NCBI RefSeq assembly: GCF_000012925.1
Contig: NC_007517.1
Location: forward strand, 3,510,001 to 3,542,000
Direction of reading: 5' to 3'
Length of the DNA stretch: 32,000 nucleotides
DNA from: Geobacter metallireducens GS-15
Lineage (GTDB): Bacteria > Desulfobacterota > Desulfuromonadia > Geobacterales > Geobacteraceae
Notes under the pieces: model-generated
What the model was told of the DNA's origin: nothing
The model's database searches: none
The model's input: only the letters and a program-made list of their open reading frames with translations
Program-made: the position numbers and the translations under genes
Shown: in pieces, positions 20,591-32,000 of the stretch
Layout: each line of letters begins with the position of its first letter
Position numbering within the stretch: the first letter of the stretch is position 1

Positions 20591-20678
20591 AACATCCTGA
20601 GCCTCTTTTCATTATTTACCACCCATGCTACAGTTCCCGCTCCCGATCCGGCACCAATCAGCAGGGAGGAACGACCAT

Positions 20679-21152
20679 ATGGCAGGCGGCATCAAGGCGT
20701 GGCCCGAGGACGAGCGTCCCCGGGAAAAACTCATGCGACGGGGAAGTCCGGCCCTCTCCGACGCGGAACTTCTGGCCCTCATCATCCGCACCGGCGACTC
20801 GGTCAGCAGGCGGAGCGCCATCGACCTCGGCAGGGCGCTCCTTCAGGAGTTCGGCGATCTCCGGGCCCTGGCCGGCGCCACCGTGGGGGAGCTCTGCGCC
20901 GTGAAGGGGACCGGACCGGCCAAGGCGGCCTCCATCAAGGCGGCCCTGGAGATCGCGTCCCGCATCAACTCTGAGCGACTCATGATCTGCAGCGAGCGGT
21001 TCACCTCCCCCGAACAGGTCTACAACCACTACCACTATGCCTTTCGGGACCGGCGCAAGGAGTACTTCATGGTGCTGCTGCTGGACGGAAAGAACCGGAT
21101 CATGCGGGAAGTGCAGATATCGGAAGGAAGCCTCAACCAGAGTATCGTGTAG
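20679..21152 (+). pseudogene. radC: radC (UPF0758 / JAB-domain protein), 3'-truncated: the N-terminal HhH part and the start of the JAB domain only
   Basis: MAGGIKAWPEDERPREKLMRRGSPALSDAELLALIIRTG...VKGTGPAKAASIKAALE...EYFMVLLLDGKNRIMREVQISEGSLNQSIV then stops. The family normally continues with HPREVF... and the HNHPSG JAMM motif. The stop coincides with an abrupt fall in GC content. Confidence 0.8.
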
Positions 21153-21184
21153 AATTTAACCCCGAAACATTTCTTTAAAATGGT

Positions 21185-21223
21185 AGCCCTTGGGACACAC
21201 AACTTGCCCAAGGGCTTTTTTTA
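21185..21223 (+). terminator. Rho-independent terminator just inside the island's left end
   Basis: agcccttggg-acacacaacttg-cccaagggct is followed by ttttttt. Confidence 0.75.
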
Positions 21224-21497
21224 TTTCATTAGAGTTCAAGACTCAACCCCATCACTCCACACCCCCCCACAACACCTTATAATTACATATATTTCTCCCT
21301 GCGCAACATTAGGTAAAAATAATTTATTTTATCCCGAGTTTTTGGGTCTTCCGAACATAAATAAACATGTTCAAGACCAAGTCTGAACTGAACCTCGAAA
21401 TGAACAACGCAGATCACTCCATCAGCAATGCTATGGGGCACTGCAACTAAACATTGAAAAATCACTATATCTACTTGATGGGAAAGGTGCATCTAAA

Positions 21498-22037
21498 ATG
21501 AACATTGAATCTACATATTCATATACATACCAAGACCAGCTCCACAAGAGCTATAAGGACTTTATAATGCAGTGCGCACCGTTTTCGTACTTTATAACGC
21601 TAACGTTCAGAAATCGGCAATCCGAAGACGAAAGCAAGCGGCAGATAAACTTTCTGCTTCATTTGCTTAAACAAAAGGTATTGGGAAGGAAATCAGACGG
21701 AGAGTATTTGAACGGATTTTGTGCTTTTGAAAAACATCGCTCTTTTGCAAACAATGAACTGCACTGTCATATTCTTTTATGTTCTCATGACAAACTGGAC
21801 TGTGAGGGCAAAAAGCCCTTTTCTGAGCACTTTTATGAGTGCTTGGGGAAGGTCAATGTTCAGTACGGGGTGCTTCATGGAAAGGACATTCCGCAGGTCA
21901 AAGCCTTTGCCAAAAATTGTTGTGATATTACTGTAATTTATGACTTGGATGGTCTAGTTAGCTATTTCACAAAGACCTTTGAAAGGAATTTGAACTTAGA
22001 TGCTTTTCAACCAATAGGCAAGTATGGAATACAATAG
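21498..22037 (+). CDS. HUH-motif endonuclease-like protein (rolling-circle Rep / inovirus Gp2, YagK-YfjJ-like)
   Basis: The 179-aa ORF carries the three ordered HUH-Rep motifs: FITLTF (motif I), ELHCHILL (H-u-H, motif II) and VSYFTKT (Y-x-x-K, motif III). Confidence 0.5.
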   Translation: MNIESTYSYTYQDQLHKSYKDFIMQCAPFSYFITLTFRNRQSEDESKRQINFLLHLLKQKVLGRKSDGEYLNGFCAFEKHRSFANNELHCHILLCSHDKLDCEGKKPFSEHFYECLGKVNVQYGVLHGKDIPQVKAFAKNCCDITVIYDLDGLVSYFTKTFERNLNLDAFQPIGKYGIQ

Positions 22038-22046
22038 GAGAAGGAT

Positions 22047-22226
22047 ATGCTAAAGCCTTATCGACAATCTCTTTATCATTGCAAGAAAACAGGGACCAAC
22101 AAACAGCGCCTCAGTATTTATGTCCCAGAAGACACGATGCAGAAGCTGGAGAATTGGATAGCTAAAAATGAATCAAAAATGACTCCTGGTCAAGCAATTA
22201 CAGACATATTGTCAATGGTGCTATAA
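22047..22226 (+). CDS. Small ribbon-helix-helix-like protein (59 aa, not in the ORF track)
   Basis: The ATG follows AGGAGAAGGAT. The translation is MLKPYRQSLYHCKKTGTNKQRLSIYVPEDTMQKLENWIAKNESKMTPGQAITDILSMVL. The segment RLSIYVPEDTMQKLENWI has the beta-strand/helix pattern of CopG/RHH proteins. It lies 9 nt after the Rep-like stop. Confidence 0.5.
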   Translation: MLKPYRQSLYHCKKTGTNKQRLSIYVPEDTMQKLENWIAKNESKMTPGQAITDILSMVL

Positions 22227-22258
22227 TTACATTTTTTGCCATACGCTAACTATATAAA

Positions 22259-22504
22259 TTATATAATTTTATTTTTTGTCTTGTACCTGTTGCTGTTAAT
22301 AAATTGCTTGAATGTCATAAAATTTTTGAGTATGGATGTATCAGACAATGAAATGTCCTTACTTCTTTTGGTTTCCGCGCAGTTATTGCACGATTTTTCT
22401 TGATGGTCGACATCCGTACCAGAATTGCAGTCACAATTACCTGTAATACTTTTCGTATCCAGTTTTATGTCTTTATTGCCCACCTTGCCCCTCCACTGAA
22501 TCAA
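22259..22504 (-). CDS. Hypothetical Cys-containing 81-aa ORF (weak)
   Basis: The ORF has a TTG start, no clear RBS and AT-rich sequence, and I recognise no family. It is listed only because it is the sole ORF in this spacer. Confidence 0.15.
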   Translation of the reverse strand: MIQWRGKVGNKDIKLDTKSITGNCDCNSGTDVDHQEKSCNNCAETKRSKDISLSDTSILKNFMTFKQFINSNRYKTKNKII

Positions 22505-22560
22505 ATTGTTAGTAGCAACGGCAAACCGTCGTTGCTTTAACTGTATTTATCGTATTTCTT

Positions 22561-22845
22561 GTGGGCAAATTTACCTTATACAGCCTGACATGGTACTGGA
22601 CCATGCAGCGGGCAAGCGTTAAACTGGGGATATTCGTAACTATGCGGGAGCCGACGCGGGGGATTCTTGGAACAGTCCAATGTTACGGATACTATGATTA
22701 CCAGCTGTCCGAAAACTTGCCAGTGCAGCGGATACCGAGTATCCATGTGTTATCGGAGGAGCAGTTCTTCCGGGGAAAATATCCCCATGAGCTACTCCTG
22801 CCACACCGAGGGACAGTCGGGAATACACGAAGGGCGATAACCTAG
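22561..22845 (+). pseudogene. Probable decayed 3' remnant of a DNA methyltransferase/REase-like-domain gene
   Basis: GIFVTMREPTRGILGTVQCYGYYDYQLSENLPVQRIPSIHVLSEEQFFRGKYPHELLLP resembles the conserved C-terminal pattern G-hh-IT-EEPT--M--EA--AG-Y-S------P-hQIhTIEELL-GK----P that I remember from a family of site-specific DNA methyltransferases. Key positions here are degenerate. Confidence 0.3.
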
Positions 22846-22905
22846 GGGAATATCGGGTAACTGTCTCTTTTCGACTTGGCAGCAGCAGGACAGGGACAAT
22901 ATAAA

Positions 22906-24624
22906 TCAAGCAGTCAAAACTGCTGCACGAGCAAGCACAGTTCTATCAATTTCAGCCTTCCATTCGGGAGCATGCAGGTCCGGTCGGAAACCGGTGCAGA
23001 TATTCAGCAGTTCCCGGATTTCTGCAACCCTAACATTGCCCGAACGGAACATGGCTTCGAACAGTGTCTTAAACTGGGCTATGGTCAGCGGAATAATGTC
23101 CAGTCCCATTCTATTATCGTCCCGGTCATACCAGACGCCGATACGGAACGTTTCAGCGGTATTGCTGTCAATCTTCTTGGCAAGGAACAGCCCATAAACC
23201 GGCTTATTCTGGGCAGCATACCGGACAACCTCGTCTGCTACATGCCGTCGGACTGGTTCCCCTTCAGCAGCTTCCTGCCGGGAATTCTCCGTCAGAGTGA
23301 CCTCAACGACGACCACAAAATCCTCAAATTCAAACAGCAGGTCAGGACCACCGCCCGGAGCCGGTCCAATAGGCAGGAAGTCCTGATCAATTTTGAACCG
23401 GCGAGCTTCGTAAGGACGGTTCATAAGGCTATCAATGGCAAGGAACGCCCGCCATAGCGTCCACTCGAAGTATGCTGGAGCTTCCGCCTGTGGAATGGCA
23501 ATAGCCTCTTCATCGTCATCGCCACCACGACGCCTACGCGGATTGATAAGCAGGTCCATATACTCCGCTATCTCATGCCATTCTTCCCCTTGGCGGTTCG
23601 CATATTCCTCTTCATTCATCCGGGACAGGATATCTTCGGCTTCGTGCCGGACAATCGCTATATCGGCAGCAGTATCAACCGTTCTTCCGGTAATGTTGAA
23701 CTGGACACCCCGGCGATTGACTTGAGCAACAAGGTCGTAAAGGACTATCCGAGCCGTATCACGGTTATCAGTCGGCAGCGTAGCGCCGTTGCACAGAGAA
23801 GAAACAAGCCGAAGGTCATTATCCGGAAGGGCAATATCCGCCACCAGCTGTTCAACAAAGACGTGTTTCTCCGGAACAATAGCAATCCCTCGTCCCTTGC
23901 TTTGCACAAGACCGGTAGCTTTCAGATACCGGAAGTTTGTATCTGCATAATCCCGGAATGTGCCCGGAGCATACTGATGCTCCACACCAGCGGCATTATA
24001 GCTATCTTGGTCGAAACGCCGCTTGTTCTGCGCTTCACTGCGTGCAGCGCGGAAAGTCAGTATCTGGTCAACGATTTCAACCGTTGGCGCTTCTGTGGCG
24101 GTAAGTTGGACATACAGCGCCATTTCCTGAAAGTTCAGCCTGCTTTCACCGGTCCGACGTTCCAGTTCCAGCAGCACCGCCAAGGTATGACGTAAAGGGG
24201 AAAACAGATTGTAGGTGTAATTTGGTTCAAGAACCGAAGGAATGTAATATGCTGCCAAGGACCGCAGGAAGCATTCCTGAATGCCGGAAACGCTTTCCGC
24301 TTCCACCAGTCGGCGACCGTTTGGGGTAATGATAAACGGTCTGCCCAGTTCTTCCTGTGCAATCCCGGCTCGTGTTGGAAGCTCCGGATAGATAAAGCCA
24401 AGCTGGCTCAATGCCGCCCGCCACTTGCGTCCCATGTCGGATACGTCTGCATCCGGTCGGATAATATTCACTACGCCAGCGTGGTGAAGTTCCCAAGCGA
24501 AACGGATTTCGTTTTCACGTCCCTTGATATTTCCGTCAAGGTTCGAGGTCGCTAATGCTAAAAGACCGTCGCGCAACCTGAATGGATTACGGACGGTCGT
24601 ATTGCCAAGGTACCAAGGTCTCAT
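22906..24624 (-). CDS. AlwI/BstNBI-family Type IIS restriction (or nicking) endonuclease
   Basis: The 572-aa ORF resembles my recollection of Nt.BstNBI/AlwI-family sequences. The matches are N-terminal WYLGNTTVRNPFRL, FRDYADTNFRYLKATGLVQSKG (family: RDVADATTRYFRYTGLF), FEWTLWRAFLAI, and the catalytic region GGGPDLLFEFEDFVVVVEVTLTENSRQ...EPVRRHV (family: GNQPDMEIIYEDFIVLGEVTTSKG...EPVTRHY). Confidence 0.8.
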   Translation of the reverse strand: MRPWYLGNTTVRNPFRLRDGLLALATSNLDGNIKGRENEIRFAWELHHAGVVNIIRPDADVSDMGRKWRAALSQLGFIYPELPTRAGIAQEELGRPFIITPNGRRLVEAESVSGIQECFLRSLAAYYIPSVLEPNYTYNLFSPLRHTLAVLLELERRTGESRLNFQEMALYVQLTATEAPTVEIVDQILTFRAARSEAQNKRRFDQDSYNAAGVEHQYAPGTFRDYADTNFRYLKATGLVQSKGRGIAIVPEKHVFVEQLVADIALPDNDLRLVSSLCNGATLPTDNRDTARIVLYDLVAQVNRRGVQFNITGRTVDTAADIAIVRHEAEDILSRMNEEEYANRQGEEWHEIAEYMDLLINPRRRRGGDDDEEAIAIPQAEAPAYFEWTLWRAFLAIDSLMNRPYEARRFKIDQDFLPIGPAPGGGPDLLFEFEDFVVVVEVTLTENSRQEAAEGEPVRRHVADEVVRYAAQNKPVYGLFLAKKIDSNTAETFRIGVWYDRDDNRMGLDIIPLTIAQFKTLFEAMFRSGNVRVAEIRELLNICTGFRPDLHAPEWKAEIDRTVLARAAVLTA

Positions 24625-24803
24625 TTGACAACAGTCAGAAGACGGAAAAGTTTCTGTTCCATTTTCACCAACGGTTGCAGCAGGTCATAAGCGTGCTCCA
24701 CCAGTATCATGTCGTCTGCCTTGTATAGTTCGGTTACAGATTGGCGGGAAAGGTCAAGCGCCTGCTGCGCCGCTTCCAACTTCTCACGGTCTGTTAATAA
24801 CAT
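24621..24803 (-). CDS. 60-aa helical protein translationally coupled to the AlwI-family gene (function unknown)
   Basis: A strong AGGAGG RBS lies 4 nt upstream of the ATG. The stop overlaps the endonuclease start (ATGA). Its GC content resembles the R gene, not the AT-rich gene upstream. Confidence 0.6.
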   Translation of the reverse strand: MLLTDREKLEAAQQALDLSRQSVTELYKADDMILVEHAYDLLQPLVKMEQKLFRLLTVVK

Positions 24804-24830
24804 ATTGCCTCCTGAACCTATATAAACTTA

Positions 24831-25826
24831 TTACGGAGAAAAATATGAAAGTAATTTCTGGGAGCCATCATGACATTCAAATGTCTTGAAATCTTCTGTC
24901 CATTCATAAGCAATCAGCCGGTCATTATTCAGGTAATCAATAACCCACTTGTCTTTCTTACTGATAGGTGCATTGGTCACTATACAGATACATGCATTTG
25001 GTTCTGAAAATACATACCGATATTCGTACAATTGAGACAATGCTTTTCGAATTTGGCTTACAAAGTTTGTATCTGTGATTGATTTCATTTCGTATAGGAC
25101 GATGTCTTTATTGTTTTTTGAGTATAAGTCAATTATTTCATTTTCAAATGCCGGGAGATTCTTGTTTTTTAGAAAAAGTGATTTTGCCGTGACAAGATTC
25201 CAATGTATCTGGTTTGCCCTGTCGAGTTTTTGTGATTGAACTTCGAATTTAATTTTTTTACCCACTTTAGGGTCAGATTTGAATTCTTTGTCAGAAATGC
25301 CATCACATAACAAAGTCTTGGTTTTTACCGCAGCTCCAATGTATTTGTTAAGGATGTAATTATCTTTATTAATAACAATGGTTTTATTTTTTACGAGATA
25401 ATTCAAATAATTAATAAAAGTCGAAAAACGTCTTTTAGCCGTACTTTCAGCACCTGGATAAAATTTCAAAAACCAAAGCCTCAATTGTGCTTCAGTAGGA
25501 TGATCACTATTGATATATGCAATGGCACGCTGAAAAACTATCGAATCAAGTACGCATCTTGTTAGAAATTCATTACGAGCAGATGACGTATTGAGAGAAG
25601 AAAATTCCTTGCCAAGAGCGGTAAGTTCAGAGTGATTATTACTGGTTACAATAAGACCAAGTATCTCTGCTGCAAGCCTATAATATCTTCCTTGTCTTCC
25701 GCCAGAATCTAACCCTATAACACCTTCAATGCTGACATCCGAAAAGTTCCCTTGTGATACAGCAATAGCGACTTCACCGACTTTTTCAAGTCTGTCTGCT
25801 TGCGGAAAGTCGCTTTGGGAAATCAT
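24831..25826 (-). CDS. PD-(D/E)xK nuclease-fold protein with an N-terminal wHTH-like domain (unassigned family)
   Basis: The protein is about 331 aa. The C-terminal part has IIDLYSKNNKDIVLYEMKS...QIRKALSQLYEY (a D...E-x-K arrangement followed by QL-Y). The N-terminal part (GGRQGRYYRLAAEILGLI...LTALGKEF) looks like a DNA-binding wHTH. The ATG at 25826 lies 2 nt after the methyltransferase stop; the ORF-track start at 25832 is TTG. Confidence 0.6.
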   Translation of the reverse strand: MISQSDFPQADRLEKVGEVAIAVSQGNFSDVSIEGVIGLDSGGRQGRYYRLAAEILGLIVTSNNHSELTALGKEFSSLNTSSARNEFLTRCVLDSIVFQRAIAYINSDHPTEAQLRLWFLKFYPGAESTAKRRFSTFINYLNYLVKNKTIVINKDNYILNKYIGAAVKTKTLLCDGISDKEFKSDPKVGKKIKFEVQSQKLDRANQIHWNLVTAKSLFLKNKNLPAFENEIIDLYSKNNKDIVLYEMKSITDTNFVSQIRKALSQLYEYRYVFSEPNACICIVTNAPISKKDKWVIDYLNNDRLIAYEWTEDFKTFECHDGSQKLLSYFSP

Positions 25827-25828
25827 TC

Positions 25829-27745
25829 TCAATACCCAACAAATAAGTATTCTTGCACGTCGTTATTGTTATCTCCGACCTTGTGCCCATGTGTTCCGAA
25901 TGAATACTTGTAGTCCACCGGAATGACCGCAACATTGGTCTTGTACTTGCCCATTATTTCAAGCATCTCGTCCTGCGTGGGCTGGCTGTTGGACGAGTAT
26001 GATACTATCAGAATATTGTTTTTGAACCGCTTAAACAAGTGGTCAAAGGCGTCCGCAGCACCCTTTCTTGTGGAAAATGGTGTCGGATAGGATTTGAATT
26101 TCTTGGTCTGGGTGTGTTCCTGTATCTCCACACCCTTCCAGTTCCTTGCCAGCCCTTCAACGAAGTGATACCGGCGGACATACTCGTTGTCCGACAGCGG
26201 GCTGTAATATGGCGGGTCAATGTAGACCAGTGCATTTTCTACGACCGGTACGGTCAAAGCGTCGCCGTGGCGTGATTTGTTTTCATGCCCATTATCAAAA
26301 ACGGCACTGTTAATCGCTTCCACAGCTTCTAGGAACTGGTCCGCAAATGACAGGTGAAGATCACGCCGCCCGTCGTCATAGCGACCAAGACCGGTATAAG
26401 TGAATATCCCGCGTGGACGCTTCTTGGTGCAGGCTCTGATAAGCGCCGAAAGGGCGATTGCCTTCTTATATTGATTCTTCAATGCCCAAATATTTGACCT
26501 CAAGACATCAATCAGGCGATTATCGGCATCCTCGAAGTAAAGACCCTTGAACTTCTCCGCCACGAAGCCGTCAGACTTGTGCTTTGGTTCCAACAGTCTC
26601 CGTGCTTCTTCAAGCGGAAGAATAACGGAATTATTCTCGACCATTGCTTTTGTAAAGCACGCCGACATGTGCATGTAGTCATTCGATATGACCGCCTTGC
26701 CATGAGACTTGAACATATAGCCGACAATCCCGCTACCGGAAAAAAGGTCAACGGCGGTATCGAAGTCAAACTGGGACGCTACTGCCCAAATGTCTTTCAG
26801 GAGTTTGTTCTTGCTTCCCATATAACGGGTAGGCGGATACAGCAAAGCCTGTTCCGGAAGTGGTTCCGGCACAAGTTTCAGGTTCAGACGTGCCTTGGGC
26901 TTGATGTCAACGATAACATCTTGCCCTGTGCGTCCTTGTCCATTACAACTGATATGGCGCTTGGTCTCAACGACGTACATTTCATAACGCCCGTATAGTT
27001 CATGCACCAAGGGATTGTTGCTGTTAGTCAATATGACATAGCACCCTAGTTCATGCAGGCGGGCGATTTCCGTAGCAAGTTCCACATGGTCTTCCTCGTA
27101 GAACTGTTCTTTGGTGTATCGCTTGAAATCAGCATACGCCGATACCGGGAGATATGGCGGGTCAAGGAAGACAAAATCACCGGAACGTGCGTGTTCCCGT
27201 AGTACGTCCTTATAGTCGCCAAGAACTATCGTTGCCTTGCTCAACAGGTAAGAAGCGGCACGCAATCCTTCTTCGTCAAGAATGCGGGGATTGACGTACC
27301 GACCATAGGGCGAGTTGAACTGACCGCTTTTGTTGACCCGGTACAATCCATTGAAGCAGGTCCGGTTCAAGAAGATTGTCCGAGCCGCTGCGGACGCTGG
27401 CGAAAGCTTGGTCCAGTCCTGCGCCCTGACCTTATAGAAATCGTCTTCCGTGTTATTGTGGCGTTTCAGGCACCGGATAACATTGTCAACATTGTCGGCA
27501 ACCGATTGGTACAGGTTGACCAGTTCCGGGTTGCTGTCGGCAATAATGGCATCTTCCGGCTTGACCGCAAAGAACAATGCTCCGCCGCCGAAGAATGGCT
27601 CGATATAGCGACCGTACTTCTTCGGCATCTTGGGCAACAGTTGCCCAAGCAGTTGCGACTTGCCGCCTGCCCACTTCAAAAGAGGTCGGCAACCAGACAA
27701 ATCGCACAACTCACTGATATTTCTGTTTGTTTTTGATTTTGTCAT
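25829..27745 (-). CDS. Two-domain N6-adenine DNA methyltransferase (Dam-like domain plus FokI-N-like domain fusion)
   Basis: Domain 1 (residues about 20-290) has LKWAGGKSQLL, EPFFGGGALFF, NPELVNLY and FLDPPY (Dam/D12 class). Domain 2 (about 300-638) has RYMGSKNKLL, DLFSGSGIVGYMF, MVENNSV, VYIDPPYY, ILIVSYSS and EYLFVGY. Domain 2 resembles the N-terminal half of M.FokI as I recall it, so the domain order is permuted relative to M.FokI. Confidence 0.85.
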   Translation of the reverse strand: MTKSKTNRNISELCDLSGCRPLLKWAGGKSQLLGQLLPKMPKKYGRYIEPFFGGGALFFAVKPEDAIIADSNPELVNLYQSVADNVDNVIRCLKRHNNTEDDFYKVRAQDWTKLSPASAAARTIFLNRTCFNGLYRVNKSGQFNSPYGRYVNPRILDEEGLRAASYLLSKATIVLGDYKDVLREHARSGDFVFLDPPYLPVSAYADFKRYTKEQFYEEDHVELATEIARLHELGCYVILTNSNNPLVHELYGRYEMYVVETKRHISCNGQGRTGQDVIVDIKPKARLNLKLVPEPLPEQALLYPPTRYMGSKNKLLKDIWAVASQFDFDTAVDLFSGSGIVGYMFKSHGKAVISNDYMHMSACFTKAMVENNSVILPLEEARRLLEPKHKSDGFVAEKFKGLYFEDADNRLIDVLRSNIWALKNQYKKAIALSALIRACTKKRPRGIFTYTGLGRYDDGRRDLHLSFADQFLEAVEAINSAVFDNGHENKSRHGDALTVPVVENALVYIDPPYYSPLSDNEYVRRYHFVEGLARNWKGVEIQEHTQTKKFKSYPTPFSTRKGAADAFDHLFKRFKNNILIVSYSSNSQPTQDEMLEIMGKYKTNVAVIPVDYKYSFGTHGHKVGDNNNDVQEYLFVGY

Positions 27746-27869
27746 AATAGATAGCGATGTTCAAAGGGTACAATCTACTCTAAAATTTAGCCACAATGCA
27801 AAGTAATTCCATGGACCCTGCTGTATATTTTCGCTGCTATAAATGTTGTAAGGAGTTACAAAGTTTTCA

Positions 27870-27879
27870 GATATCGAAA
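27870..27879. repeat. Left copy of the 10-bp target-site duplication GATATCGAAA
   Basis: It is identical to 29193-29202 and immediately abuts the IS terminal inverted repeat. Confidence 0.85.
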
Positions 27880-29192
27880 TACTACTGTCCGGTAAACTTT
27901 GATTGTACAGCTGTAACTTGTTGAACTTTATTGCTCTTTGGCACAATTGTTCTTTTTTCGACATGAATTCGTTCTGGGTGTAGCCTTCCTCCCTTTACAG
28001 GAGGGGAGCAATGCACACCGGTCCGACCGTTTTCAAACAACTTCTGCAGTTTCTGCCCCGGTACGAATTCAATCTCTGCGTTCGCCGACACCGTGGCGAG
28101 TATCGGGAGAAGAAGTTCTCGACCTATGACCAGTTCCTCTGCCTGGCTTATGCCCAGATGGCTGGCCGTGAGAGCTTGCGGGATATCGAGACCTGCCTGA
28201 ACTCCCACCAGGAGAAGCTGTACCACATCGGCTTTCGTGGTGATGTCTCCCGCACGACCCTTGCCGACGCGAACGAGCGCAGGGACTGGCGTATCTTCCA
28301 AGACTTCGGTCATGTACTGATCGGCATAGCTCAGCAGCTGTACCAGGCTGATGCCATCGCCGTTGAGCTTACGCAACCGCTCTACGCCTTTGACTCGACC
28401 ACTATCGACCTGTGCCTTACGCTGTTCCCATGGGCCGAGTTCCGCAAAACCAAGGCGGCGGTCAAGATGCATACGCTCATTGATCTGCGTGGTCCCATTC
28501 CAACCTGGGTCACTATTACCACTGGCAAGGTCCACGATGTCAGGATGCTGGACCATCTGCCGGTTGCAAAGGATGCCATTTACACGATGGACAGAGGGTA
28601 TGTCGATTTTGCCCGGCTCCACTCCATCCACAAGCAGGGAGCATTCTTCGTAGTTCGGGCAAAGGACAACCTGAAATGCCAGCGGTTATATTCCCATCCG
28701 AAGGACAAGGAATCAGGTGTACGGGCAGACCAGATTATCACCCTGGTGACGCAGAAGTCGAAAAAGGGGTATCCGGAGAAACTGCGCCGGGTCAGCTATG
28801 TTGACAAAGAACGGAACAAGCGACTCGTATTTCTCACGAACAACTTCGAGATTCCGGCAGCGACGGTGGCTGCGATTTACAAGCAGCGCTGGCAGGTGGA
28901 GCTGTTTTTCAAATGGATCAAACAGCACCTGCGGATCAAGTCGTTCATCGGAACGTCAGTCAATGCCGTGAAGAGCCAGATATGGGTTGCCTTGTGCATC
29001 TATCTGCTGGTGGCGATCACGAAAAAGAAGTTGGGGGTTCCGTGTTCGCTCTACACTTTTCTACAGATTCTGGAGGTCAACTTGTTCGAGAAAAAGCCCA
29101 TTTCATCGCTGGTTGCGGAGGCTCTCAAGCGAAATGCTGATTATCCTGAGCGCAACCAACTGAACTTATTCAACTATTAACCGGACAGTAGT
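27880..29192 (+). mobile_element. IS4-family insertion sequence (about 1.31 kb)
   Basis: The terminal inverted repeats are ACTACTGTCCGGT (27881-27893) and its complement ACCGGACAGTAGT (29180-29192). The element is flanked by a 10-bp direct repeat, has a single DDE transposase ORF, and is more GC-rich than the surrounding island. Confidence 0.9.
28011..29180 (+). CDS. IS4-family DDE transposase (DUF4372 N-terminus)
   Basis: The 389-aa ORF has a DUF4372-like N-terminus (FKQLLQFLPRYEFNLCV...FSTYDQFLCLAYAQMAGRESLRDIE), the DDE residues (YAFDSTTIDL, YTMDRGYVDF) and the IS4 Y-x2-R-x3-E-x6-K signature (YKQRWQVELFFKWIK). Confidence 0.92.
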   Translation: MHTGPTVFKQLLQFLPRYEFNLCVRRHRGEYREKKFSTYDQFLCLAYAQMAGRESLRDIETCLNSHQEKLYHIGFRGDVSRTTLADANERRDWRIFQDFGHVLIGIAQQLYQADAIAVELTQPLYAFDSTTIDLCLTLFPWAEFRKTKAAVKMHTLIDLRGPIPTWVTITTGKVHDVRMLDHLPVAKDAIYTMDRGYVDFARLHSIHKQGAFFVVRAKDNLKCQRLYSHPKDKESGVRADQIITLVTQKSKKGYPEKLRRVSYVDKERNKRLVFLTNNFEIPAATVAAIYKQRWQVELFFKWIKQHLRIKSFIGTSVNAVKSQIWVALCIYLLVAITKKKLGVPCSLYTFLQILEVNLFEKKPISSLVAEALKRNADYPERNQLNLFNY

Positions 29193-29202
29193 GATATCGA
29201 AA
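29193..29202. repeat. Right copy of the 10-bp target-site duplication GATATCGAAA
   Basis: It is identical to 27870-27879. Confidence 0.85.
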
Positions 29203-29363
29203 CGAAAAAATTGTGAATAAGCTACCCGATTTGTCTCAACAAATTCGGTAGCTGCCTTAAGAGATATGCTTGAATGGATTTCATGGCAGATTTAAGCTGG
29301 TTTTCTGGAAATAATAGAATTCCCCCTTTCATGCAGAAGCTATTGGTAAAAATCGGTCCACAT

Positions 29364-29975
29364 TCAGGCAGTCAACCCGCGTGTAGCAATGAAACTGTAG
29401 ACTGTACCGCGCGAAACCGAAAATATTTTAGCAATAGACGACAATGATACCTGCTTCCGCAGGAGTTCTGTTATCTGACCTTCCATACCGTCAAGTTTGC
29501 TTACCCCGGTAGCTCCTTTGGGACGTCCTAGCTTGACCCCGGCAGCCTTTCGGGCTTCTAGAGCCCTTTTTGTGCGATCAGAAATCAAATCTCTTTCCAA
29601 CTCTGCAAAGAGCGAGAACATCGTAACCATAACCTTTGCCTGAAGGTTCTCACTCCCATTTATATTCAGGTTTTGCTTTATCGCTATTAAGAACACCTTC
29701 TTAGATGCCAATTCATTTATAATATTCAAAACTTCTACTGTACTTCTACCTATCCGCGACAATTCAGAGACAATAACACGGTCCCCTTGAGACAACATAC
29801 TAACTAAATAGTCAATTTTACGCTCTTCTACTGACTTACGACTTGAAATCTCAACTTCTACAAAGTCGTCTATAGATAATCCATTCTTTTGAGCGTAATC
29901 AAGAATCTCAAATTTTTGATTTTTCAAATCTTGCTGACTTGTGCTGACTCTCAAGTATGCTATTGTTTTCGCCAT
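29364..29975 (-). CDS. Small serine recombinase (resolvase/invertase family) with a C-terminal HTH
   Basis: The 203-aa ORF has AYLRVSTSQQDL (catalytic Ser), VSELSRIGRS, FAELERDLISDRTK, GRPKG and the C-terminal HTH SIAKIFSVSRGTVY. Confidence 0.9.
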   Translation of the reverse strand: MAKTIAYLRVSTSQQDLKNQKFEILDYAQKNGLSIDDFVEVEISSRKSVEERKIDYLVSMLSQGDRVIVSELSRIGRSTVEVLNIINELASKKVFLIAIKQNLNINGSENLQAKVMVTMFSLFAELERDLISDRTKRALEARKAAGVKLGRPKGATGVSKLDGMEGQITELLRKQVSLSSIAKIFSVSRGTVYSFIATRGLTA

Positions 29976-30160
29976 ATTCAGCCTTCCTTTGCCTGTTAAT
30001 AAAATAGTTAATTGCTATTTTTATTTTACGGATACAGTCAAAGGAAGTCTATGGTTAATTTGTTATATATTGCATACTAAAAACGTATGTTTTGCTAGAC
30101 TCTTATTAATGGTAACTAGAGATGTCACTCTTACAATACCATTCATTATGTTTGGCGAGA

Positions 30161-32000
30161 CTAATTTGAATCCAGTTCAAATTCGGTTTCGAATGGGTGT
30201 AATTCTTCCTCTTCTCTAAATATTGGCGCCATTTCTTTATTCCCCATCCACCAATTCAATTTATCGTTAATTAATTCTGAAGTTACCCGGTACGCTTGTT
30301 GTTTCTTGTCGTATTTAATAGTTCGGTAGTTACCGTTTTTGAACCTGACGACGAAGAATCTATCATCTTTTGTGTTTTGCTGTGACTGCCTCATTCCATC
30401 CAAATCAATGGTTTTTTCATGCTTCAGAATGTGTTTTTCTGAATCAGATGCACTTTTTATTTTAATTTCGTAGTCTCTTTCTTTCTGTTCTATCTGTTCA
30501 TCACTAAAGACGCTTCCTCTCGGGTATACTAATATTTGGCTTATTATTTGTCTTAACTCGTCACGCAATCTGATTCTAAACATTATTTTGTCATCTTCTT
30601 TCACTGATTTATTCTGTGCCTTATCCAAAGTAAGCAAATTTTGCACTCTAACATCTATATTATTATTATCATATTCTGCGATGCATATTCCCTTACTCAA
30701 TTTTTCTATCTCTTCAGATAGGTTTGTTTTTTCTTCTAACTTTTTCTTTATCTGTTCGTGGTAATGCTCTAATTCTGCTCTTTCAGTAATATCATCTAAA
30801 AAAACATTCAACATATCAATTTGTTTTTGCACCTTCATTAGTTTGCCATTTCTTGCCGTTAAGCTTTTTCTCAGTTCATTTAATCTATTCTGGTCTGCCT
30901 GTTGTTCTGCTCTAAGCACATATCTAATATCAATTTCTCTGCAATATTCAAAAAATGCTTTCTCGATCTCATTACATTTCATAGAAATGTAACTACACTT
31001 GACTCCGCGTCTTGCACTATCACATACCAGATACCTTACTTCACCTCCAACGTTATGCCTAGCAACAACATCCATACGTGAACCACAGTAACCACACCTT
31101 GTATATCCGCTAAACAAATTTTCTACTTTAGCAGTTCTACCAGGTCTATGTGCTCCGTTTTTCAATTTAGCTTGTACTGCATAGAATGTATCGGTGTCTA
31201 TAATAGGAGGAAAATAATCTTTGATTAGTTCACCGTCCGGAACCGGTTTTGAATGTTTTGAGCCAAACACATGTGGCTGAAACTCTCCAATCACAGCACT
31301 ATTGGAAAGGATTTTTCTGACGGTTGTCTGATACCAACCTATTTTTGACCTAAAAGGTTCTATTTTTTGTTTATTTAATATGGTTGATATTGCCTTTACA
31401 CCAAGACCAGATAAAGATAATTCAAATATTTGTTTTACAATTTCGACTCTGTCTTCTTTCAGTATAAAATCTTTCTTGTCAGGAGTTAGTTCAAGCCACC
31501 CTGGACAATTCGCTGTCAACTTTATATTGTGAAGATTTTTGCGCTTCAGACGCCACGCCGCACATATTCGTTCTGATTTCCGCAAGCTTTCTTCATTTGC
31601 ACGAGCCATAATACCCAAGGAAATGAATATGTTGCCGATATTCGCTTCAAATCCTTCTTTTGTGTACTCCATTTTGTCACTAAGAGTAACGATTTTGATG
31701 CCAGCGTCCAAAATCTCTTGAAATTGCTTGAAGGCTGTCAATACACTCTCTCGACTCAATCGGTCCAGCGATTCGACTAGAAGAACCGATCCTTTAGGCA
31801 CCCGTCCTTGCTTCACAAATTCGAGAAATACACCAAATTCACCTTCCTTGACATGTTCACTCGTGAAGGCGGACTTACCCAAATCTTGATAGGAATGTTT
31901 ATCATCTAGCACTAACCCGTGTTCTTCTGCGTACGTTCGGGAGAGTTGAAGCTGTCTTTCCAAGCTGCTTCCCTCTGCTTGTGTTGCTTTTGAAAACCGG
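30161..32000 (-). CDS. Large serine recombinase (candidate island integrase), N-terminus just beyond the window end
   Basis: The in-frame translation continues to the window edge: RFSKATQAEGSSLERQLQ... (catalytic Ser motif). It is followed by the resolvase core (LLVESLDRLSR), a recombinase domain (GVKAISTILN...GWYQTTVRKILSNSAVIGE), a zinc ribbon (CGYCGSRM...LVCDS...KC) and a long coiled coil. The ORF-track M at 31963 is an internal TTG. Confidence 0.88.
   Translation of the reverse strand, partial: RFSKATQAEGSSLERQLQLSRTYAEEHGLVLDDKHSYQDLGKSAFTSEHVKEGEFGVFLEFVKQGRVPKGSVLLVESLDRLSRESVLTAFKQFQEILDAGIKIVTLSDKMEYTKEGFEANIGNIFISLGIMARANEESLRKSERICAAWRLKRKNLHNIKLTANCPGWLELTPDKKDFILKEDRVEIVKQIFELSLSGLGVKAISTILNKQKIEPFRSKIGWYQTTVRKILSNSAVIGEFQPHVFGSKHSKPVPDGELIKDYFPPIIDTDTFYAVQAKLKNGAHRPGRTAKVENLFSGYTRCGYCGSRMDVVARHNVGGEVRYLVCDSARRGVKCSYISMKCNEIEKAFFEYCREIDIRYVLRAEQQADQNRLNELRKSLTARNGKLMKVQKQIDMLNVFLDDITERAELEHYHEQIKKKLEEKTNLSEEIEKLSKGICIAEYDNNNIDVRVQNLLTLDKAQNKSVKEDDKIMFRIRLRDELRQIISQILVYPRGSVFSDEQIEQKERDYEIKIKSASDSEKHILKHEKTIDLDGMRQSQQNTKDDRFFVVRFKNGNYRTIKYDKKQQAYRVTSELINDKLNWWMGNKEMAPIFREEEELHPFETEFELDSN

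Follow-up and report, generated by a model that had tools for sequence, protein, structure and literature searches.

The 32,000-nt window analysed here (the whole stretch, positions 3,510,001 to 3,542,000 of contig NC_007517.1 of Geobacter metallireducens GS-15) carries on its minus strand an operon that most likely specifies a Type II restriction-modification system. Its two nucleases are unrelated to each other, and one comes from a family that has not been characterised. The latter, referred to below as the DUF7226 nuclease, is a predicted restriction endonuclease of 331 amino acids (aa), encoded at 24831..25826 (stop codon included, minus strand) and recognised from its homologues, its AlphaFold2 (AF2) model and its composition. 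It joins an N-terminal DUF7226 domain to a C-terminal PD-(D/E)xK domain. The operon has four genes in the order methylase, DUF7226 nuclease, a small open reading frame (ORF) called orf60, and an AlwI-type nuclease. The reading that the gene encodes a second GGATC-directed restriction endonuclease, modular in build and belonging to an uncharacterised family that is the usual partner of M.AlwI-type methylases, is given a probability of about 0.6.

In this reading, the tandem winged-helix N-terminal domain would bind unmethylated GGATC, a disordered linker of ~25 residues would tether it to the C-terminal PD-(D/E)xK domain with its candidate catalytic residues D233, E246 and K248, and the tethered domain would cut at or near GGATC, in a layout resembling that of Type IIS enzymes. 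GGATC is the proposed target because the family regularly partners methylases that place N6-methyladenine (m6A) on both strands of this site; known AlwI relatives cut 4/5 nt downstream of it. With one active site per chain, the enzyme would need transient dimerisation for a double-strand cut, or else would only nick. The m6A added by the upstream methylase would block binding and shield the host DNA, the nuclease gene being translationally coupled to that of the methylase, and the AlwI-type enzyme and the DUF7226 nuclease would act independently under one methylase. We infer this DNA specificity, the cleavage and the independence from the AlwI-type enzyme; the domain architecture, the residue conservation, the gene linkage and the break in composition are direct observations, and the specificity of the methylase is known from the literature.

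Domain architecture of the protein

The homologues of the DUF7226 nuclease form 405 clusters of about 335 aa, and the alignment of their N-termini identifies the ATG at 25826 as the correct start. In the full AF2 model (predicted local distance difference test, pLDDT, 89.9; predicted template-modelling score, pTM, 0.85) two tandem winged-helix units, at residues ~10-78 and ~81-160, are followed by a linker and a compact alpha/beta domain. An initial annotation, made from the DNA letters alone, had described the protein as a putative winged helix-turn-helix combined with a C-terminal D...ExK...QxxxY nuclease core, and this description is borne out in both parts: the N-terminal region is the tandem winged-helix DUF7226 domain, and D233, E246, K248, Q265 and Y269 are invariant.

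The N-terminal domain (aa 1-165; 25332..25826, minus strand) is a putative DNA-reading module, delimited by PF23871, AF2 and Foldseek. PF23871 (DUF7226) matches residues 45-148 with 35.9 bits against a gathering cut-off of 27 (E-value, E, 8e-9). The AF2 model shows helices at 13-24, 30-36 and 44-55 with a hairpin at 59-68, and then helices over 81-146 with a hairpin at 150-159. When the full model was used as the query, Foldseek ranked Nt.BspD6I first (probability up to 0.99), and the recognition domain of BpuJI scored 0.90-0.96. No HTH_3 or XRE match was found in the protein with Pfam.

Within this domain, the putative recognition helix spans aa 44-55 (RQGRYYRLAAEI; 25662..25697, minus strand), as indicated by conservation and by alignment to the AlwI family. 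The helix carries the sequence RQGRYYR and is followed by a beta-hairpin. Across 71 sequences that represent every architecture and extend down to 30% overall identity, R44, Q45, G46, R47, Y48 and R50 never vary and Y49 is conserved in 99%. The invariance of this helix parallels the constancy of the methylase partner, and the N-terminal domain probably reads GGATC. Helix and wing align with residues 63-121 of the AlwI family (GRKWRAA..LGF...ITPNG; hhalign probability 79%, E 1.6e-5), at a score of 40.1 versus 15.7 ± 2.9, with a maximum of 27.3, in 60 column-shuffled controls. The N-terminal region of the AlwI-type protein to which DUF7226 aligns is the part that phmmer left unaligned to N.BspD6I, an enzyme specific for GAGTC. 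In full-length comparisons of the DUF7226 nuclease with the AlwI family (hhalign probability 2-36%), this helix-plus-wing segment is the sole part to align.

The flexible linker (aa 168-192; 25251..25325, minus strand) is evident both in AF2, where 168-192 has no secondary structure and pLDDT falls below 50 at residues 180-194, and in the alignment, of which it is the most variable and most gapped stretch.

The C-terminal PD-(D/E)xK nuclease domain (aa 193-331; 24834..25250, minus strand) is defined by its invariant residues, AF2 and Foldseek. The catalytic candidates are D233 (25128-25130), E246 (25089-25091) and K248 (25083-25085), and the QxxxY motif is Q265-LYE-Y269 (25020-25034), all on the minus strand. 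These five residues do not vary in three homologue alignments: 31 full-length sequences, 12 diverse C-terminal domains including one with a different N-terminus, and a further set of 25 sequences. The domain modelled on its own reaches a pLDDT of 94.0 and has the alpha-beta-beta-beta-alpha-beta core of the superfamily, and Foldseek matches it to PD-(D/E)xK nucleases exclusively, among them XisH at probability 1.0 (template-modelling score 0.57-0.60), Hjc at 0.99, the catalytic domain of Nt.BspD6I at 0.97, PaqCI at 0.77 and McrC at 0.47. The QxxxY motif, which in RecB/Cas4-like nucleases follows the ExK strand, is invariant; neither a PDDEXK_1 nor a Cas4 model matches, and the top Foldseek matches include no structure of the RecB family. 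The assignment to the PD-(D/E)xK fold is sound, although none of the solved structures is a close relative.

The initial annotation had been unable to place the protein in a named restriction enzyme family, and the outcome is the same here: the curated nuclease models of Pfam, NCBIfam, PADLOC and PHROGs do not match the C-terminal domain, PF09491 (AlwI family) does not match the protein, and the PDB returned nothing for either the protein sequence or the family profile. A common origin of the catalytic domains of the DUF7226 nuclease and the AlwI family was considered and rejected, the C-terminal domains aligning with an hhalign probability of 0.5%.

Gene neighbourhoods and the methylase partner

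A scan of DUF7226 neighbourhoods, with one genome per species, gave 80 loci, and in 67 of them the DUF7226 gene lies directly downstream of a homologous two-domain methylase, either fused or split in two genes. The methylase is missing in only one DUF7226 locus having at least 2 kb of upstream sequence. The two genes are separated by a median of 2 nt; a single locus stands out with 117 nt, while the other 66 range from -4 to +15 nt. The median is also the distance in the window from the TGA stop of the methylase to the ATG of the nuclease gene. The initial annotation described the gene as inserted with near-perfect translational coupling to the methylase stop. The coupling is confirmed, but the junction is inherited rather than made by a precise insertion, because the same spacing is the norm of the family.

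A full-length DUF7226 nuclease accompanies the methylase without a nearby AlwI-type gene at 44 loci and with one at 12. Many loci begin with a small XRE/HTH_3 gene, in the usual position of a controller protein, and in most loci the DUF7226 nuclease is the only candidate nuclease of a compact controller-methylase-nuclease unit. Other defence genes are found in these loci, namely McrC-like, TIR, Schlafen/AlbA-type (PF04326 SLFN_AlbA_2) and WYL genes.

The same question can be put from the side of the AlwI-type genes, for which 72 metagenomic loci were informative. At 68 of these, the methylase is followed directly by the AlwI-type gene, with no DUF7226 gene; DUF7226 stands between the two as a full nuclease at three loci and as a short protein at one. 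Methylases 72-77% identical to that of the window are paired with a DUF7226 nuclease alone, with an AlwI-type enzyme alone, or with both. Since each nuclease pairs alone with the same methylase clade, the two are alternative partners, each apparently sufficient, and the gene order of the window (methylase, DUF7226 nuclease, orf60, AlwI-type nuclease) is a composite.

The gene arrangement is old and is not specific to this genome, and it has already been recorded, without explanation. In G. metallireducens GS-15, the fused methylase M.GmeI (Gmet_3140) was reported to produce GGm6ATC and Gm6ATCC, with >98% of its sites methylated in vivo, and GmeIP (Gmet_3138) was described as AlwI/EacI-like (Murray et al. 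2012, PMC3526280). Between the two lies a 333-aa ORF that was left unexplained, with no proposed function, domains or family survey (PMC3526280). The layout of that locus is identical to that of the operon in the window, the ORF measuring 333 aa from a TTG or 331 aa from the ATG, and the gene studied here is very likely that ORF. Nothing besides PMC3526280 was found in the literature on DUF7226 or Gmet_3139. As the next relative of the ORF, the paper names a protein of 509 aa from Syntrophothermus lipocalidus, which is encoded next to an ACCTGC methylase (PMC3526280). A similar case, in agreement with this observation, comes from a Tolypothrix plasmid, where the same C-terminal domain ends a 516-aa protein that has a different N-terminus and is encoded beside a 5-methylcytosine (m5C) methylase.

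The distribution of the target site is counted as support for GGATC-directed restriction. The 4.8-kb operon has 0 GGATC sites versus 9.4 ± 3.3 expected, and the island in which it lies (21051-32000) has 4 versus 18.7 ± 5.0. In the host part of the window the depletion is mild to moderate (63 versus 91 ± 10). GATC is also depleted in the island, with 13 sites versus 42 ± 5.9 expected.

Another facet of the family is the variety of forms that DUF7226 takes: a stand-alone protein (~148 aa), fusions with GmrSD_N that have an AAA ATPase as neighbour, fusions with Mrr_cat or with a DpnII-like region, and part of longer proteins. As far as sequence can tell, such fusions fit a portable targeting module. 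Fusions with GmrSD_N/DUF262 (~524 aa), followed by an AAA_15/AAA_21 ATPase (~421 aa) and a 272-aa protein, were seen with the same methylase clade at the loci labelled L068 and L070-L078; L068:7995-11651 is an example, and L077 has an AlwI-type gene in addition, after the GmrSD_N-ATPase genes. Further fusions are represented by P0314 (694 aa), P0355 (338 aa), P0329 (432 aa) and P0342 (1233 aa): the partners are a DpnII-like C-terminal region, an N-terminal Mrr_cat domain and DUF6996/DUF6997, and in the last case DUF7226 is part of the 1233-aa protein. A DUF7226-like segment was also detected by tblastn within an annotated DptF gene on a Priestia plasmid.

Reduced forms were met too. At L172 (Acinetobacter baumannii plasmid CP081145.1, 12139-14796) an XRE regulator and a fused Dam-like methylase are accompanied by a 152-aa DUF7226-only protein and no nuclease; Tn7-like transposition genes are neighbours, and blaOXA-23/ISAba1 lies ~3 kb further. 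Isolated fragments of the C-terminal domain occur beside DpnI-like genes at L174:4138-5459, L175:3868-5411 and L176:2526-5642, the last in a decayed controller-methylase-fragment operon. DpnI is m6A-dependent and GATC-specific, and these three loci hint that a methylating system was replaced by a methyl-dependent one.

Composition, origin and competing explanations

The contrast in guanine-plus-cytosine content (GC) that the initial annotation had counted by hand, and the coordinates it gave for the gene, are both correct. GC is 0.354 in the DUF7226 nuclease gene (996 nt) versus 0.507 in its three operon partners (3815 nt; two-proportion z = 8.6), which individually have 0.495 (methylase), 0.481 (orf60) and 0.524 (AlwI-type gene), and no 996-nt window inside the partner genes falls under 0.481. 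In 60-nt bins, the edges of the trough match those of the gene: it begins within the methylase gene, ~50 nt from its 3' end, and stops at ~24791, within the first four codons of orf60. A clear discontinuity also appears in codon usage, GC at third codon positions (GC3) being 0.298 in the nuclease gene versus 0.585, 0.557 and 0.517 in the methylase, orf60 and AlwI-type genes.

Low GC was ruled out as a trait of the family, because the homologues are on average 3 points more GC-rich than their own methylases. At 57 other loci, the methylase GC minus the DUF7226-gene GC is -0.03 ± 0.026, with a maximum of +0.048, versus +0.141 in the window; for GC3, the window shows a difference of 0.287 and the family one of 0.035 ± 0.055. 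The shift extends to amino-acid usage: Phe, Tyr, Met, Ile, Asn and Lys (FYMINK) make up 0.350 of the protein versus 0.276 ± 0.036 in the family, while the methylase of the window, unlike the nuclease, is not enriched in them. The closest relatives of the nuclease, at L081 and L083 (61-62% identity, with methylases at 77% and 73%), differ in the same direction as the window, the GC3 of methylase and DUF7226 gene being 0.445 versus 0.333 and 0.517 versus 0.301, respectively. Low GC is a trait of this subclade and not of the whole DUF7226 nuclease family.

In L081 the DUF7226 gene is directly followed by a relic of orf60 that is frameshifted yet can still be aligned clearly, so the order methylase-DUF7226-orf60 predates the split of the window and L081 lineages. 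This relic, together with the GC mismatch common to the closest relatives, led to the rejection of a recent, Geobacter-specific insertion. Set against the common methylase-orf60-AlwI operon, the AT-rich gene occupies an inserted position, after the methylase stop and ahead of orf60. Of the idea that the gene is a cassette of different origin dropped into the operon, the foreign composition and the insertion relative to the AlwI-type operon therefore stand; the gene is, however, one that regularly accompanies methylases of this clade. By inference, the composite is probably the product of recombination between two GGATC operon types with homologous methylase genes, in which a DUF7226 allele from a lineage with a long AT-rich history would have been joined to a mid-GC operon. 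The conserved 3' end of the methylase gene and the 5' end of orf60 are plausible crossover sites. A search for a breakpoint within the methylase gene, by sliding-window identity to the methylases of methylase-DUF7226 and methylase-AlwI operons, gave no signal at 72-77% identity.

The low GC might instead reflect selection on this gene rather than foreign ancestry, rare AT-rich codons or silencing keeping a toxic nuclease low. This explanation is less probable but a serious alternative: it agrees with the mismatch in L081 and L083, since neutral drift should have erased an old difference, but it accounts poorly for the 57 other loci, where the DUF7226 gene is slightly more GC-rich than the methylase, for a shift that reaches amino-acid usage besides synonymous sites, and for the rest of the island backbone, which is similarly low (GC 0.375-0.383). 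As for function, it is unlikely that the winged-helix domain, instead of reading GGATC itself, docks on the methylase or regulates the operon, the protein being a methylase-dependent nuclease or a nuclease-bearing regulator. DUF7226 is almost always beside this one methylase clade, ~148-aa DUF7226 proteins are kept by the methylase without a nuclease (for example on A. baumannii plasmid pARLG_6295_1), and the window has no XRE controller gene. The fusions to Mrr_cat, GmrSD_N and a DpnII-like region nevertheless fit a DNA-targeting module better, as do the resemblance to the recognition domains of BpuJI and Nt.BspD6I and the alignment with the AlwI N-terminal helix, and many loci already carry a classical XRE controller gene. 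Quite improbable is a heteromer with the AlwI-type protein in which, as in R.BspD6I, each polypeptide would cut one strand. The AlwI family does include nickases that need a separate small catalytic subunit, and the AlwI-type protein of the window matches N.BspD6I and ss.BspD6I; the two nuclease genes lie in one operon here, at least 12 further loci have them side by side, and Nt.BspD6I came first in the full-model Foldseek search. Each gene, though, is usually found without the other (44 loci on one side, 68 of 72 on the other), the DUF7226 nuclease has its own DNA-binding domain whereas ss.BspD6I has none, its C-terminal domain shares no profile similarity with the AlwI catalytic domain, and the AlwI-type protein fits a PADLOC restriction-enzyme model (2e-209) over the nicking models (8e-20). 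Least probable is that the protein serves repair or strand discrimination by nicking hemimethylated GGATC, in the way MutH acts at GATC, or that it is a relic without activity. Linkage to a Dam-like methylase, the single active site per chain and the many decayed family fragments would suit this view, but the island around the gene is mobile, with recombinases and an insertion sequence (IS), the homologues stand among defence genes, the controller-methylase-nuclease layout is typical of restriction-modification systems, and the copy in the window is intact with all invariant residues kept.

The reading as a second GGATC-directed endonuclease has its own difficulties. The case for the predicted activity draws on sequence, structure models and gene context; the structural matches are all weak (Foldseek E > 1e-3, identity ≤20%), and no named restriction-enzyme model matched in Pfam, NCBIfam, PADLOC, PHROGs or the PDB sequence search. 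DUF7226-only proteins persist by the methylase with or without an AlwI-type gene, so that the domain may have a role other than nuclease targeting. In addition, a GC mismatch common to relatives just 61-62% identical is hard to square with a single old transfer followed by neutral drift of composition. A wider proposal, possible but tentative, sees in DUF7226 a portable module for reading GGATC, of common ancestry with the AlwI recognition subdomain and fused in nature to at least four different nuclease domains (its own PD-(D/E)xK domain, Mrr_cat, GmrSD_N and a DpnII-like region), the window holding a one-methylase, two-nuclease system. Two mechanistically different enzymes would then attack the same unmethylated site, providing anti-restriction redundancy or cooperative cleavage, and the coupled 60-aa protein would tune the AlwI-type partner.

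The operon, its island and known systems

The window consists of a GC-rich backbone (1-21050, mean GC 0.627) and a mosaic island (GC 0.443) that contains the operon. The first gene of the operon encodes a fused two-domain Dam-like (D12 class) adenine methylase of 638 aa, of M.AlwI/M.GmeI type (25829..27745, minus strand), with two PF02086 matches (E 9e-84, Pfam) and a match to TIGR00571 dam (E 3e-82, NCBIfam). Both of its halves are 42-78% identical to methylases adjoining DUF7226 or AlwI-type genes at ~150 loci. The last gene encodes an AlwI-family Type IIS restriction endonuclease, GmeIP-like and 572 aa long (22906..24624, minus strand), which matches PF09491 at E 1e-187 and the PADLOC REase_II model PDLC03463 ('Type II restriction enzyme') at E 2e-209, far better than the 'Type II nicking endonuclease' models at E 8e-20. 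Its C-terminal domain is the part that matches N.BspD6I and ss.BspD6I in the PDB sequence search, and it has the family residue at every invariant column of a 13-member alignment in which the window sequence is row 1. The DUF7226 nuclease gene itself has a same-place copy, with an exactly identical protein, in a second assembly, GCA_000243475.2.

Between the two nucleases lies orf60 (24621..24803, minus strand), a small helical protein of 60 aa, identified by direct reading of the sequence. It is provided with an AGGAGG ribosome-binding site of its own, and in the tetranucleotide ATGA its stop codon runs into the AlwI-type start codon. In ~28 loci the methylase and AlwI-type genes are 213-222 nt apart, and the intervening DNA holds a small ORF of the same pattern, mostly of 67 aa (62-72 aa), with the ATGA overlap in nearly all of them (positions examined: L093:4834-5004, L092:368-556, the gaps in L096-L139, and, for the frameshifted relic, L081:3527-3710). 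The closest homologues are at L093 (82% identity; methylase 75.8%, AlwI 72%), where the ORF starts 1 nt past the methylase stop, and at L092 (68%), both without a DUF7226 gene. No family in Pfam, NCBIfam, PADLOC or PHROGs matches orf60, which may control or chaperone the AlwI-type enzyme.

Upstream of the operon, an IS with a DDE transposase gene at 28011-29180 (PF01609, PF14294) occupies 27881..29192 on the plus strand, bounded by 16-nt terminal inverted repeats at 27881-27896 and 29177-29192. It sits 135 nt upstream of the methylase start codon, and in assemblies that contain this operon the sequence breaks off 134-163 nt ahead of the methylase gene. A search for an XRE controller gene in the window found none; at other related loci such a gene often stands where the window has the IS, which may have taken the place of the controller gene or of the native promoter. 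In a scan for the promoter and terminator of the operon, candidate sites were no commoner than expected by chance.

The borders of the island offer some further hints. A RadC-like gene (20625-21152, plus strand) ends early, at 175 aa, where GC falls from ~0.65 to ~0.40 (at ~21050), which suggests radC as the integration site of the island. The opposite end of the island is outside the window, next to the genes of a large serine recombinase (30161-31963) and a resolvase (29364-29975). The AT-rich segment 21050-22550 (GC 0.383) encodes a 179-aa protein (21498-22037, plus strand) with a weak match, below the cut-off, to the replication-associated ORF2/G2P family PF23343, and may be the remnant of a small replicon or a replication module of the island.

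If the reading as a second GGATC-directed endonuclease is true, it would add an uncharacterised family of restriction enzymes, with ~400 protein clusters and a predicted GGATC specificity, which would be easy to test because Dam methylation in Escherichia coli already gives the protecting modification. It would also mean that one methylase clade serves interchangeable nuclease partners, singly or paired, and engineering work would gain a compact natural module for reading DNA that could be compared with AlwI. Finally, it would explain the ORF of the M.GmeI/GmeIP locus that has been flagged as unexplained since 2012.

Among known systems, the general frame is that of Type II restriction-modification nucleases, with which the DUF7226 nuclease shares a gene adjacent to, and co-oriented with, that of a GGATC methylase. 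The family of AlwI, N.BstNBI and N.BspD6I (PF09491) is similar in having a winged-helix recognition region, a linker and a C-terminal PD-(D/E)xK domain, and in pairing with the same methylase clade. The DUF7226 nuclease, however, is ~240 aa shorter and lacks a PF09491 match, the catalytic domains show no detectable relationship by profile, and its catalytic strand reads E246-M-K248 (ExK) versus an invariant E-V-T in the AlwI family. Type IIS enzymes such as FokI and BpuJI likewise tether a winged-helix recognition module to a PD-(D/E)xK module with one active site per chain, their cleavage module being non-specific, but there is no sequence relationship and the DUF7226 nuclease, at 331 aa, is much smaller.

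The small subunit of heterodimeric R.BspD6I, ss.BspD6I, offers another parallel, since it too is encoded as an additional nuclease in the operon of an AlwI-family gene. Yet ss.BspD6I consists of nothing but a catalytic domain, one homologous to the C-terminal end of the large subunit, while the DUF7226 nuclease has a 165-aa putative DNA-binding domain, a catalytic-domain sequence unrelated to it and mostly no AlwI-family neighbour. Unlike the controller (C) proteins, the DUF7226 nuclease is no XRE protein, and true XRE genes lie upstream of the methylase in other loci. The minimal nucleases XisH and Hjc are the best structural matches of the C-terminal domain, but with ≤17% identity and a different biological context, so that they support the fold and not membership in their families.

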